A DNA stretch of 64,000 nucleotides from Chiloscyllium plagiosum (GCF_004010195.1 NC_057734.1:41007904-41071903), one strand, 5' to 3'; positions 4,966 through 55,980 are shown, counted from the first letter of the stretch. Notes: generated from the letters alone by a model not told the origin. Numbers and translations: made by a program.

Positions 4966-5150
4966 TTAGACCAAAAACAAACTGCTAGAGAAACTCACCA
5001 GGTCTCGCAGCATCTGTGGACAGAAAGAGTTAACGTTGAGTCGAGTGCGTCCTTTGCTTTCTCTCCACAGATGTTGCCAGAACTGTTGAGTTGCTCCAGC
5101 AATTGATTTTTGTTTCAGATTTTCAGCATTTGTAATTTGTTTTATTTTAG
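4966..5150. mobile_element. Degenerate PLE-related fold-back mini-element
   Basis: Imperfect inverted arms (gagaaactcaccagg..gcagcatctgtgga / tccacagatgttgccag..gagttgctccagc), similar to 16829-17006. Confidence 0.55.
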
Positions 5151-5838
5151 CTGAAATCAGACTTTGCAAACAGTCATTTAGCAGAAGATGCTACTAATAT
5201 TCCTTTGTTCCTCATCTCATTTAAAGACCAAGAAAAGCTGTGTCCAAAACTTTGGCTACACACAGTAATGTCATCGTTTTGAGAAGCTGACAGTGAAATG
5301 AAGTTTTACAACAGTTAACTACAGAAAGCAACAGTCTGACTCTCGAGAACAAATTTCATATTATTTTTCCCTGATCAGCAGTCACTTGACAATTTCAAAC
5401 TGTACCCAGTGGAACTCCAGAACAAACTATATTTAGGAAATTTGATCTTCATCCTCCCCCTTCTCTCACCTCATTGCAGTAGGCGTTAAACACTTTTCTG
5501 ATCAACAGTACTCAACAGCACTTCCACTAAAGCAGCAGCTAAGTGGAACAATTAAATCATGCTGGCATTAAAGACCATTAGAGTCTGCTGAGTTTTACTA
5601 CAGGAATCTATCTAACTGAACATGTACTAGAATAATTCAGACATTTAAGCAGCAAAAAAAAAAAAGACATGTTTCAAACTCTTGGCCCTAGCATCAAAAT
5701 AGCAGTAAAATTTCCAAACTATCCTCAACTATCATGGTCAAAAAGTAGATAGTTTGCTGTGTGTAACTATGCTCCTCATCAACTAAGGTGAAGTAAACAT
5801 GTCTAGATCACTGGATTCATAGTGTTTGTTTTACTTAC

Positions 5839-6047
5839 TTGGCCTGCAAGAATTGCTCTTTGTTGAATGGCTTATGTTTAAGACCCCACTTGTTTCTCCT
5901 TCCCCAGCCTCCATGGCAATTACCATCATAATGCGAGCCTGACTGGCCACGAGGTTCAAATGTAAAGTTTAACAAATGGTTTAGGCTTATCTTCTTAGGA
6001 CCAGTAAACTGGGCAGGACTGAACTCTGCCCTCCTCACCTCTGCTAC
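5839..6047 (-). CDS. RNF10: RNF10 coding exon 3
   Basis: [35 protein letters not shown]...[11 protein letters not shown]; tacag acceptor, GTAAGT donor. Confidence 0.95.
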
Positions 6048-6299
6048 CTGTAGGAAGAAGAAAGTTTATTTTGCATAGCAGTTCAACTTACAGTAACATG
6101 TCCAATTATGCTTGAGCAAACCTCTGGTTAGAAAACAGCTGGAGCACTTTAAGATACCACATCTTAAAAGATTTATTAGCCTTGCAGAAAATGCAGCATT
6201 GATTTCCCAAAATAATATCTAGAATCTAATGGTTAAACTAAGGATGACAAAATTCTGCTTTGGTTGTGTCAGTATCACAGACTAAAATCTGTGTCCATC

Positions 6300-6582
6300 A
6301 ATACTTATGTTTGTGGTTAATACTATGATAACAGCCAGATGATCAGGGTTTTTTCTGTCATTGACCAGAGGAGGGATTGACCAGGACATTAGGGATAAGT
6401 TAATGGCACTTTCAAAATAGTGCCCAAAGTGAGAAAGTAGACAAGACCTGGATTCATCTGAAAAAATGCCACCTCTGAAATGCAGTGAATCTTAGCTATT
6501 ACCTAAATTCAGGAGTAGAATTTGAACTTAGTTTTGTGATTCAGAAGTGGGAGTGCTGCCAACTGAGCCATAGCTGACACCA
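6300..6582 (-). mobile_element. Degenerate tRNA-derived SINE, probably DeuSINE/SacSINE1-like
   Basis: Minus head GGTGTCAGCTATGGCTCAGTTGGCAGCACTC, followed by GAGGTGGCATTTTTTCAGATG, GGCACTATTTTGAA and TGTCCTGGTCAAT segments resembling the Deu domain as I recall it. Confidence 0.5.
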
Positions 6583-51743: not shown

Positions 51744-51881
51744 TCAGCCAGACTTAAAAAGAAGGATGGCTACTTGGCCCAGGTAGAAATAGATGAAGTG
51801 TTTTGTTTCATGAGTCACGTAGCTTCCAAAGTTTCTACCCACAATACAATGCCATGTGGGATTGTATTTTTTGTCAAATTC
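51744..51881 (-). CDS. DYNLL1: Dynein light chain LC8, last coding exon
   Basis: [45 protein letters not shown]; the DYNLL1 name rests on synteny with COQ5/RNF10. Confidence 0.95.
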
Positions 51882-54045
51882 CTGCAAAACAAAAGATGGA
51901 TTATAAAAGGTATTTAATTGTAACTGTAAACTCATACCCATAAGCAACAGTTCATGAATACAAAAAAAGTTGCTTTTTGCAAGTATCCCATTCTAAATTT
52001 AAATTGGGTAAATCTCTCCTCTCCAGTTTAAATCCAATTGGAAATTAGGAATTGATTGCCTCAGCGGTGCTCAGATTGGTGGATATCCAAGACAACAATG
52101 GCAAAAACTGAAGACATACACAATTACTCTTTGCCTTGGGTCTAGTAACTTGCCTAATAGTTAAGAATGGAGAAATTAGCGATATAGCGTGGTTATGTAA
52201 AGACTTTTAGATAAACTTCAATCTGACAGAAGAATAACTGCAAAACAGGTAGCTTGAACAACACTATGCAAGAGATTGAAAGTGCAAAAAAACCTTATTT
52301 TCCAGGAAAGGAGGAAGATTGCATTTTGCAAAAACCCTAGTAAGTGAAATCAAAGACTACTTCACTCACTGTGACAATATTCTTTCTCAAATAAATGGAG
52401 AACAGAATCTGAAAGTGATTATCCTTTCTGAAATGTTCTGAAGATATTCAAACTTTGAGGATCAGCATCCACTCAACTAATTAACACATTTCAAAATTAA
52501 TACAACTTAGATTTCACTTGTACAAAACATGTACTGGTGTGTGAATTGAGGCCAAATGCTCAAGTTTTCTAATTAACACCAACCAAAGGTGTCAGAACCA
52601 AGATACATTCGGGATGACAGACAGCTTAATAGATGAAATTCAATGCAGATCAAGTAGTGCACTTTGTATGCAAGGAAAGAAGTAGAGAAACAAACAGGAC
52701 CTTGCTACGCAGATACAGACTATAAAGGCATATGGAATTTGTAGTGGTGCATCCAGGAGCACAAATTACAAAATAAAGTTTTAAATGGAACTTTTACAAG
52801 ATCTTTTTAAGGCTGTTGGTGGTATTGTGTAGCAAGAACCTCTTAGGATTTTACATGGTATGACCTGATAGTGAGATTAAGGGTTATTATACATAACTAT
52901 AGATTGACCAGAAGGCAACAGCAAAATATTGACAGTGATAGAGTGAGCAGGAGAGGGAGATAAAGCTGCATGGTTTGTGAAAAAATACAGTCACTAACTT
53001 CACTGATTGAATGTCTTATTTTTAAAAGTGTTATTCTATAAACTAAACTCCACAGTGAACAGTTAAGTGTACTTCCAAACCATCATTAACTGAAGGAAAA
53101 TAGGAGAAGGGGTTCAGAAATCAATGGTATTTGAGGTACAGTAATTTATTCAAGTTTCCCAAAACAACTTCCTGTCAGTGTTCATTGGGGCCAGACATAA
53201 ATAAAAGCAGCCAAATATTGGCAGTTCATGTATTCTGTTCAGATCTGGAGAAATATCAATGGAAATAAAAATTATAACAATAGTAATGTTTTAATTACAA
53301 TGTAATCAAATGCTATTTTCATGAACCAAAATATTTCAACAGTTTCCTTTTATACCAAAATGCAAATTATTCCAAATAGCCACATTCATTAGGTATTGAA
53401 TAGCATTAGATTGTTGTGGAAGAGTCTAATCAGATACTAACCAACCTTAAAAAAAAAAGTATGACAAATAAAAGTTTTATAGGTTATAGTTGCTTAATTC
53501 AGCTCCTTAATTCAATTACTGTTTCCATAACCTAATTACCACCCTACTCAGGAGGGGTCAAATGCACAAGCTTAGCCAGTGTTGAAGGAAAGCTACAATG
53601 AGAAAAGCAAAGTGGTTTTAAATTTCCAATTGCATAAAACAAATTTAGTTGCAGGTGGGAATCTATTACAATTGAGCAACGCTTAGTTTAGTTTCAGGCA
53701 GACTTGCTGTAAAAGTCACCAAAGTCCTACCAAAATGATATACCTTCTCTCAGAGGGGCAAATGGTATTGGTTTAACCAGACGGTCACCATACCACAGGC
53801 AAGGGGAGAGGTTGAGAAGGTCAGTCCTTCATGGTAACCACAGCTGTTGTGAGAATATAGCCCATGCTGGTGGCATCACTCTGCCTTGCCAGCTAGGCAA
53901 GTGAACTAACTTACCCCCAGACTTGCTCAGTCTACCAACTGCTGTTTTTTGTTACTAAATCAGATCAAATCCGAAAAGGACAAAGCTTGACTTTGATTCC
54001 TAAGCATGTTCAGTACTTCTCTATGGTAGAAAACCATGCTCTCAC

Positions 54046-54177
54046 CTTCTTGATGTAAGCTGCTATGTCTTTCTCAATGTTGTACTTCTCTAATGCCTGG
54101 GTAGCACATTCCACAGCTTCCTGCTGCATGTCTTCAGACATGTCAGCATTCTTGATGACAGCTTTTCTTTCAGACAT
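54046..54177 (-). CDS. DYNLL1: Dynein light chain LC8, first coding exon (exon acceptor at 54184)
   Basis: [49 protein letters not shown] donor. Confidence 0.95.
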
Positions 54178-55980
54178 TGTTTACCTGACAACAAAAAAAA
54201 AAATCCAAGTAATGAAATCAATCAACTGCACTAATCTAGAATGGAATCAATAAAAATGTAAATCATGTATTTAAAAGTATATTAGAGGCAGTCAAAATCA
54301 ACAGAAGTTAGAAAGTCCCACTAAATGGAGAACACAGATGAATATTTCAGACAAGGATCCTTCGTTTCCAAAATAAATTGTTCGCTATATTGCTGTTTGT
54401 TTTAAACAGAATGTTTTTTGTACTTCGAAACAGGATTTTAGTATATTTACAGTTTAATCCTATCAGATTCCCAACACACCAGGAACATAAGAGCACACAA
54501 GAAATGGTATAGAAAATGTGAAGTGGTTAAGCCTCAATCCAATTTTTTTTTTGGAAACTGAATTACTCTTCCAAACTAACATTTACAACACCATCTACTT
54601 CCAGTCTCACTTCAAGCAACAACACATCCAACTCTGCAAGTTATCCTTAAACTGCTCTTTCCTCCTTTATCACAAGGATTCTTTAAAATAATGTCATATT
54701 AATCTCCTTTTCAAGTTTTTTTTTGAAGTGTTTTCAAATTTTGTTTGATAATGCTATTCTGAAGGACTTTGAATATTTTACTTTAAAAAACTGTTGCTGA
54801 GCCAGTCTGAAAATGCAATTACTAAATTTTCATCTGCCAATTAAGCAAAGCCCTTAATATAGGTTTAACAGAAAACCTGGACAGAAAATTCAATTTAAAA
54901 AGTCTACACACTTGAATAACTCATACAACCAAAATTCTCTTCCAAGTTCTCTGTATGGGCATCTAAATTTCTTAATTCATTTTTAATGTTTCATTCCTTA
55001 TTTCTCTCAATTTGGTACTACGGCAAGTTAAATATTGCTGGTAAAATAAAAACTTTCGACAAAGCTTTTTATCTTGCGTCCATTAGGACGATTCAGAAGA
55101 AACACCAAAACTAAAAAGGGGGAAAATGATTTTTGATATTTTTTGTGAATTGCCCCAATACAAAAAGCTTCAGCAAAAGGAGGTCTGTTATACATTTTTG
55201 TTTTAAAAAAAATAGTTCACAATTTACTACATTTTGTGGACTGTTTCCATTGAAAGACATTAAAAATCTAGCACATTGCCATTGTGTGTTTGGGGAGAGA
55301 AGGCAAAGAGAAAGAGAAAAAAAATAAATGAAAAAAAAAGGAGGAGCAAGAGTGAGCAGAGATTTAAAAACAAGAAAATACTCAGCAAGTTTGGCACCAG
55401 TTACAGAAGACAAAAACAAAAAGGGTTAATGCTTCAGGTTGTGACCTTTCATCAGAAGCGGATCAGAGAAGGGAGGGAAAGAGGGAGCTGGATGTGGAGA
55501 GAAAGGGAGTGGTGGAGAGAAATAAAAGGAGGGGAGGGGAGGGGAGATGGAGGGAGGCGGCCAGCCGAAGATTAATGCCCGTTTGCTCAGTCCCAGTCCA
55601 GCTCGACCAGGGCAGGCTGGCGACGATCTGCAACTCCTTGCGGCCATCAGTCGGTTGCTGGATGAATCCCGATAAAGCGAAGAGATCCGGGACTCAGCAT
55701 CTCCCGCCCAAAAGACAAAACAAATTCGCGCATCGCTCTCTGAGAAAACAAAACGGTCTCGGCGGCAGTCGGCGTCGTCGCTTTTGAAGGGAGGGAGCGG
55801 ACAAAGAGAGGGAACACCGTAACCATCGCCCCATCCCGCCCTCCGGGGCATTCTTTTCGCACCGAGTCTCTTTAACGGTTTTTAAATTTTTTTCTTTGAT
55901 GCCTGAAGCCGCCCTAACAACAAGGCAATCCCCAGTGATCGCGCACGACTGGACAGGGGCGTGCGTGCCTTGAGACTCAC

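Follow-up and report, generated by a model that had tools for sequence, protein, structure and literature searches.

Hammerhead-bearing fold-backs in a shark genome as truncated insertion units of Penelope-like elements

Within 64,000 nucleotides of one strand of the genome of the shark Chiloscyllium plagiosum (GCF_004010195.1 NC_057734.1:41007904-41071903; this whole 64-kb stretch is called the window here), short hairpin-shaped sequences are found that consist of two inverted 3' ends of Penelope-like elements (PLEs) and carry hammerhead ribozyme motifs, mostly decayed. These fold-backs are real, abundant and of an already described kind, being truncated PLE insertion units with minimal hammerheads. 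Very probably, they are the 5'-truncated ends of endonuclease-bearing (EN+) PLEs, each assembled at its own insertion by two primings on RNA. An initial annotation of this sequence had proposed that the fold-back itself replicates, in the manner of a miniature inverted-repeat transposable element (MITE) or a retrozyme. Such a self-replicating class is not supported, given that junctions and tail-less ends vary between copies of the same lineage.

Seven units of the window have inverted arms, all of them with the truncated 5' ends joined in the interior and the 3' ends directed outward. Four of them are short fold-backs with target-site duplications (TSDs) on both sides, of 176, 178, 182 and 209 bp (A1, A4, B1 and B2, respectively), a type of copy that the initial annotation had described. 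In A1 (4972-5147), a tail-less left arm and a right arm with a 35-nt tail meet near 5047/5048, between TSDs of 15 bp with 2 mismatches (4957-4971 / 5148-5162). A4 (16829-17006) has an exact 12-bp TSD; its tailed left arm starts ~52 nt after the hammerhead position C3 and its tail-less right arm 2 nt before it. B1 (10374-10555) lies within a CR1-like host repeat, with an exact TSD of 16 bp (10358-10373 / 10556-10571), and its tail-less left arm (10374-10429) and tailed right arm (10428-10555) overlap by 2 nt at the junction. B2 (20345-20553) belongs to the same subfamily as B1 and has an exact 15-bp TSD. The unit P (7705-8629) corresponds to two head-to-head 3' ends of a putative Poseidon-type PLE (GIY-YIG end plus pseudo-long terminal repeat, pLTR), whose arms are 92% identical over 417 nt and meet at 8210/8211, with an exact 11-bp TSD (7692-7702 / 8630-8640). 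The head-to-head pair C (35848-36510) has an AGCU stem III palindrome, two decayed cores and a tailed left arm from which ~200 nt are missing internally. Finally, A2 (7197-7345) is an old fold-back, absent from the initial annotation, with a junction near 7227/7228. Neither C nor A2 shows a convincing TSD.

The tail is confined to one arm, being 40 nt long in B1, 34 nt in B2, 41 nt in A4 and ~35 nt in C, similar to that of A1; for P, the tail is located on the left arm and measures 29 nt, or 52 nt if a 20-nt deletion is not assumed. The passages of PMC8557442 (Craig et al. 2021) describe for EN+ PLE units an adjacent inverted 5'-truncated copy plus a 30-40 bp tail at one end, and the same arrangement, tail included, appears in those of PMC3846280 (Arkhipova et al. 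2013). The likeness to the units in these passages extends to the C-terminal GIY-YIG, the strong 5' truncation, the head-to-head inverted copy, the tail on one arm, the TSDs of ~8-16 bp and the hammerhead in the terminal repeat. However, the shark units differ from those described there in having mostly 60-130 nt per arm and in being extremely numerous. A clear TSD is present in 7 of the 14 units recognized in the span of the initial annotation (A1, A3, A4, B1, B2, B3 and P) and is weak or absent in the other seven; these TSDs measure 8-16 bp, and a 12-bp match close to both borders would arise by chance with a probability of ~1e-5. Insertion by a TSD-making retro-mechanism, as proposed initially, is borne out.

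The junctions differ even between close relatives. B1 and B2 agree in the bases diagnostic of their subfamily and in the tailed 3' end, and where their arms overlap they are 95% alike. Counted from C3 as 0, B1 joins -4 to +29 and B2 joins +1 to +7, the latter inside the hammerhead core, which is broken on both strands, and the tail-less ends of the two copies are 6 nt apart. A1, A2 and A4 have three different junction sites, and a shared junction is observed in 0 of 4 same-lineage pairs of window copies. At the tail-less end, the target matches the next bases of the family for 3 nt in B1, B2 and A4, for 2 nt in P and for 0 nt in A1. In B1, the base joined to the front edge of the hammerhead lies 1 nt beyond the predicted cut site.

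The content of the arms is informative about how they were made. In A1, A4 and B2, the tail-less arm extends further 5' and the other arm has the tail, so that each arm has sequence that its partner lacks and cannot have been copied from it; for B2, this mutually exclusive content amounts to only 6 nt. This situation, found in three of six fold-backs, favors two primings on RNA. For B1, P and A2, the sequence of one arm is wholly included in the other, and C is ambiguous. Following published PLE biochemistry, the reverse transcriptase (RT)/GIY-YIG protein would make staggered nicks in the target; one nicked strand would prime at the tail end of the RNA and the other 29-41 nt further in, often via 2-3 paired bases. 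Both cDNAs would end prematurely, in most cases within the hammerhead or immediately before it, the two ends would be joined head to head, repair would fill the TSD, and the resulting insertions would be dead on arrival. According to passages of PMC11167929 (Frangieh et al. 2024), a Poseidon protein cuts and extends both strands, two internal RT starts bound the tail, and hammerhead cleavage is dispensable in vitro.

A different route to the same form is self-priming, in which a single cDNA snaps back and copies itself, as proposed for rotifer PLEs. The passages of PMC3846280 take palindromes at inverted junctions as a sign of this event, and the P junction is a 5-of-6 palindrome. The B1 junction follows the natural pairing of stem I, so that the inverted arm lengthens stem I into a long helix, and the three fold-backs with one arm wholly contained in the other would also be expected from snap-back. 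However, the arrangement in A1, A4 and B2, with the further 5' sequence on one arm and the tail on the other, is against it, even considering the small size of the B2 case, and we regard self-priming as an unlikely general explanation. Our inference is that target priming gave two cDNAs, which were joined head to head, and that some cases may involve snap-back. A search of the literature, with subscription journals, Repbase and Dfam outside its coverage, returned nothing on shark PLE hammerhead stubs, on a pile of 5' ends at the hammerhead or on PLE twin priming.

A comparison with sequences beyond the window was made for B1 only, whose sequence (271 bp as reference) was aligned with DNA contig sets from two species (X1 and X11) and with RNA reads. 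The 47,847 and 46,069 contig records aligned to this reference agree with the abundance anticipated by the initial annotation; contig depth is not equal to copy number, and contigs break at repeats. The summed depth at the B1 junction (10414-10426) is 3,605-5,682 in X1 and 7,289-17,762 in X11, and at the neighboring position 10436 it reaches 3.8 million and 5.8 million, respectively, so that in both species the junction has 0.1-0.3% of the depth of the adjacent arm. Among 15 of the 93 joints, 13 correspond to left-to-right junctions different from that of B1, which are found in 1-2 contigs per run each and have a depth of up to 188. One joint bypasses the whole insertion, as expected of an empty host site, and another goes back from 10556 to 10428, that is, head to tail, in 6 (X1) and 12 (X11) contigs. 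Such head-to-tail contigs could reflect either partial tandems of an ordinary kind or small arrays resembling retrozymes; in the RNA reads the go-back joint is seen in none of these 15 of 93 joints, the poly(A) single-cell library being ill-suited to monomeric linear and circular RNA.

The absence of a shared junction in the window and the near absence of the B1 junction from the contigs of its family indicate that junctions are largely unique to each copy. This makes it highly improbable that the whole fold-back replicates as a MITE- or retrozyme-like element, with the hammerhead processing its RNA. The similar sizes (176-209 bp), the clean TSDs, the way in which the B1 junction keeps stem II free and lengthens stem I, and the finding of a B1-like junction in 2 other contigs would be in line with such replication, although a tail-less end that varies with the target would not. 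The MITEs of DNA transposons are small, hairpin-shaped sequences of high copy number with a TSD. The shark fold-backs are likewise small, hairpin-shaped, numerous and provided with a TSD; unlike MITEs, they have unequal arms that reach the center, a TSD of variable length, ends and centers that differ among copies, and a sequence that comes from a retroelement.

Several observations weigh against independent assembly by two primings. A B1-like junction is present at a few other loci, since 10371-10457 is bridged by two X1 contigs (depth 18 and 45.7, with 10-11 mismatches and 1-2 gaps). A single small group that underwent amplification could account for three joints that are nearly identical (10404-10406 to 10476) and occur in 5 contigs, with a summed depth of ~340 in X11. 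Also, an oft-repeated junction other than that of B1 could have been split into pieces too short to register. Moreover, the 5' ends are not distributed as random truncation would give, and the Poseidon and Neptune labels used here rest on a linker motif, not on a tree.

Regarding the origin of the arms, the translation of the P arm is a GIY-YIG end that matches 38 of 70 candidates, being 81% identical to the best of them, an RT-bearing carpet-shark protein, and the broken GIY-YIG of B3, a 5'-truncated copy without inversion, is 77% identical to the carpet-shark protein P0041 (1 match among 3 candidates). The protein relatives of P and B3 give matches to RT and GIY-YIG profiles, 1 of 6 being above the Pfam cut-off. 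The isolated GIY-YIG pieces give weak Pfam matches (E 0.08-0.09), and the open frame of P gives nothing in Pfam at 0.01. The short A, B and D stubs align with the end of B3. The short pieces derive from PLE 3' ends, as the initial annotation had it, this being shown for P and B3 and extended to the short copies by their homology to B3. C has no coding part, and its putative PLE origin is based on motif and architecture. A Cys-rich linker, which the passages of PMC8557442 use to separate Neptune from Poseidon, is present in P0041 and absent from P0003 and P0009, relatives of P; because of this, the B copies are probably Neptune-type and P probably Poseidon-type.

The proposal that the window also holds the Penelope parents did not stand, with no PLE being full-length or intact there. 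P and B3 were rejected as parents because they carry the GIY-YIG end and no RT sequence; they are longer broken siblings instead. RT sequence appears in a putative Neptune-type piece at 63224-64000 (+ strand), which lies beyond the span of the initial annotation, is frameshifted and cut by the window edge, and has 47-65% amino-acid identity to P0041 over the RT end, the linker and the start of GIY-YIG. The family patterns have 0 matches in metagenome and prokaryote genome contigs. Viral contigs match a 16-nt pattern at 120 loci, which were set aside as chance because comparison with the arms leaves only 4 matches at E 1e-3, all short (19-30 nt) and each spanning the search pattern. As a separate observation, shark gene models named in their source as MAP3K7, CUEDC2, NT5DC1 and WBP2-like isoforms (the P-arm matches P0004, P0008, P0035, P0037 and P0040) contain PLE GIY-YIG sequence, which is either exonized or misannotated.

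For the hammerheads, a search of the window in both orientations with a descriptor of minimal type I motifs (CUGANGA, then 0-1 extra base, a stem II of at least 4 bp, GAAA, a 2-bp palindromic stem III and UH) gives two matches, at 8576 and 10432. In 200 dinucleotide shuffles the mean is 0.03 matches, and 2 or more are reached in 1 of 200. The P hammerhead (8573-8612, + strand, core at 8576) has a 6-bp stem II including a G-U pair and an ACGU stem III palindrome, and its copy in the left arm bears G5A. The B1 hammerhead (10430-10461, + strand, core at 10432) has its cut predicted between 10459 and 10460. Ten hammerhead sites had been listed initially: a remnant is found at all ten, but only these two are intact, and at the intact sites the palindromic stem III and the extra base after A9 are as described. 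The others are broken: 20435(-) lacks C3, 24082(-) has G8A and G12A, 31397(-) has C3U and A14G, 16914 keeps the core letters with a mismatched stem II and without UH, 16619 has G8A, 55455(-) has A14G, 36433 has G12A, and 35972(-) has a mutated core. Four of these sites (16619, 24082, 31397 and 55455) are not fold-backs, having no inverted arm. An Rfam scan of the window matches the hammerhead family at neither intact site; its 12 matches are all below the gathering score and are mostly microRNA models on fold-back hairpins. No tRNA, 5S or 7SL, the sources of the Pol III promoter head of SINEs (short interspersed nuclear elements), is among these 12 sub-threshold matches, no search for promoter boxes having been made.

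These motifs resemble the minimal hammerheads of metazoan PLEs in the passages of PMC4209133 (Cervera and De la Pena 2014) in the extra base after A9, the G10.1 pair and the palindromic positions 15.2-16.2. The occurrence of mostly solo motifs tied to truncated PLEs and of motif pairs 100-700 bp apart on opposite strands is also shared. The hosts named in those passages are teleosts, coelacanth, frog and reptiles, whereas here the host is a shark and the motifs are known from sequence. According to the same source, a 2-bp stem III needs a dimer, and no dimer would form in cis because the fold-back RNA has one sense motif; this, together with the presence of an intact motif in only 1 of the 4 short TSD-flanked fold-backs, is a further point against replication of the fold-back through its ribozyme.

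In the predicted folds of whole units, P and C each have 27 of their 28 hammerhead bases paired with the opposite arm, and both hammerheads are thus predicted to be buried in the arm-arm duplex. Stem II stays free in the predicted fold of B1 only, and the B2 core is cut by the junction. Among 40 of the 105 variants, those within 10432-10460 fall at N7 (19% of X1 depth), in loop II and at CpG sites, a placement consistent with a core that was conserved in the parent lineages and not in the copies. Stem covariation in four copies of the B lineage, a small sample, shows two-sided change in 0 of 8 pairs, with 93% of the cells paired. The 1,688 RNA reads on B1, which come from the poly(A) single-cell library, are about equally divided between both strands. 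The hammerhead would be a passenger from the pseudo-LTR of the parent. By eye, a branch-point-like CTGAC, a pyrimidine run and a CAG follow the hammerhead at 10480-10506 and in the homologous A, B and D arms, resembling a 3' splice site. Passages of PMC2377424 indicate that PLE pLTRs can hold introns, with the Drosophila pLTR containing a start site and an intron; stubs are not dealt with there.

The 5' ends of the arms appear to be piled at the hammerhead, a pile that is not described in the passages of PMC8557442 and PMC3846280 and in which the shark copies would differ from known EN+ units. Taking arm borders set by hand, C3 as 0 and an interval picked post hoc, 7 of 17 A/B/D arms start at -6 to +1 (5 of 13 with firm borders). 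Overall, 14 of 17 start within -6 to +35 and one starts at -521, with the interval between -7 and -400 being empty. Under a null of exponential lengths, 0.6 starts are expected at the edge (P ≤ 1e-4) and 4.6-7.1 upstream (P ≤ 0.004); for the latter, P is 0.02 when the 13 firm borders are used and the long copy is left out of the fit. In the contig sets, 828 and 780 contigs begin at 10428, and the letters upstream agree by only 0.32-0.33. A stop at the far edge of the hammerhead suggests an RNA 5' end, because the 3' side of the ribozyme is the first that RT encounters. The arm starts at the front edge hint at a defined RNA 5' end, which would most simply arise by run-off from the 5' pseudo-LTR of the full transcript, since priming is internal in the passages of PMC11167929.

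The same ends would be left if the mobile unit were a non-autonomous RNA of ~130 nt, from the front edge of the hammerhead to the tail, copied in trans by PLE proteins. This RNA would be SINE-like (resembling a short interspersed nuclear element) or a retrozyme-like monomer from tandem masters, the fold-back being still made at insertion. The clustering of arm starts beyond the null, the contigs beginning at 10428 with little upstream agreement and the head-to-tail joint from 10556 to 10428 all point in this direction. However, the arm-start test was chosen post hoc and relies on borders drawn by hand, the reference arm itself begins at 10428 and thereby forces part of the pile, and the upstream consensus could be blurred by the existence of several parent subfamilies. 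Moreover, the loose ends in RNA (456 reads, agreement 0.43) are pyrimidine-rich, resembling the 3' untranslated region (UTR) of B3, the window contains 0 tandem arrays, and no pile of RNA starts or ends is seen in the 1,688 reads, for which this library is a weak test. Run-off from the full-length transcript gives these ends with no separate element, and we consider a separate short RNA quite unlikely. In its most specific form, the dominant shark mobile unit would be a hammerhead-headed RNA of ~130 nt with a defined 5' end, a PLE-dependent SINE-like element primed from both target strands, a proposal that we regard as improbable.

Truncated insertion by two primings, which we prefer, is compared here with two further systems. 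The green anole Poseidon PAc, in the passages of PMC11167929, has a tail delimited by two RT starts, a reading frame open from the hammerhead onward and no RNA ends at the cut site. In the first two aspects the shark copies would be alike, the tailed arm of P being open for 33 codons from the core ATG, and the RNA reads on B1, as a weak proxy, show no pile of ends either; however, PAc is an intact autonomous element, and there is none in the 64-kb window. The non-LTR retrozymes in the passages of PMC7229834 (Cervera and De la Pena 2020) and bioRxiv 10.64898/2026.07.22.740005 (Li et al. 2026) are, like the fold-backs, short, non-coding, provided with a type I hammerhead and derived from PLE pseudo-LTRs, and one chondrichthyan is reported there with retrozymes. 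Nonetheless, retrozymes form head-to-tail tandems with a motif per unit and a circular RNA, whereas the shark copies are dispersed, single or head-to-head, and their motifs are mostly broken.

The remaining units of the window are non-inverted. A3 (16614-16730, +) is a single stub that begins 5 nt before its decayed core and has an exact 8-bp TSD. A5 (17116-17205, -) is an old tail-less stub with an ill-defined 5' border, and A6 (17828-17968, -) an old tailed stub that extends to the front of its decayed core, with a weak 9-bp TSD. B3 (23955-24603, -), the putative Neptune-type end, has a TSD of 14 bp with 1 mismatch and contains, in order, the broken GIY-YIG, the pyrimidine-rich 3' UTR, the decayed hammerhead and the tail. 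B4 (31298-31399, -) is an old tail-less stub in a CR1-like repeat that begins 3 nt before its decayed core, with no TSD found. D (55365-55459, -), old and tail-less, begins ~5 nt before its core (A14G) and has a weak 9-bp TSD. E (49049-49165, +) is an old stub with ill-defined borders that was absent from the initial annotation. The copies at 5, 10, 17, 20, 24, 31 and 55 kb are mutually alignable at 63-95%. Because the A, B and D copies align with each other, they represent one lineage, to which A1, A2 and E also belong, and the at least four families counted initially are reduced to three lineages, C being the third. In the span of the initial annotation, the 14 PLE-derived pieces add up to 3,793 bp, 5.9% of the window.

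The window otherwise contains much CR1-like LINE (long interspersed nuclear element) debris. An endogenous-retrovirus-like sequence at 19170-23204 has direct repeats at 19170-19797 and 22680-23204 (89-95%), with B2 located between them, and includes an open frame resembling env (22028-22657, +), which is weakly matched by TLV_coat and HR1-HR2. Another decayed fold-back at ~55014-55216, with 32-nt arms that are 72% complementary and a 9-bp TSD-like repeat with 1 mismatch, has no self-comparison match to the three lineages. Just to the right of P, the segments 8678-9002 and 9000-9292 form a diverged tandem duplication of ~300 bp with 75.5% identity. An exon at 54020-54160(-) has a translation resembling dynein light chain LC8, and a GC-rich stretch near 55.5-56.4 kb lies upstream of it.

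In terms of annotation, fold-back hairpins of this kind draw false microRNA matches and could be filed as MITEs or SINEs. The integration step of PLEs is incompletely worked out, according to the passages of PMC8557442 and PMC11167929, and the shark copies are a large natural record of this step, in which the content of the arms can separate two-ended priming from self-priming and the pile of 5' ends could map the start of the template. The significance would be greater if a separate short RNA were the mobile unit; if that were true, the genomic fold-backs would record the integration intermediate tens of thousands of times.

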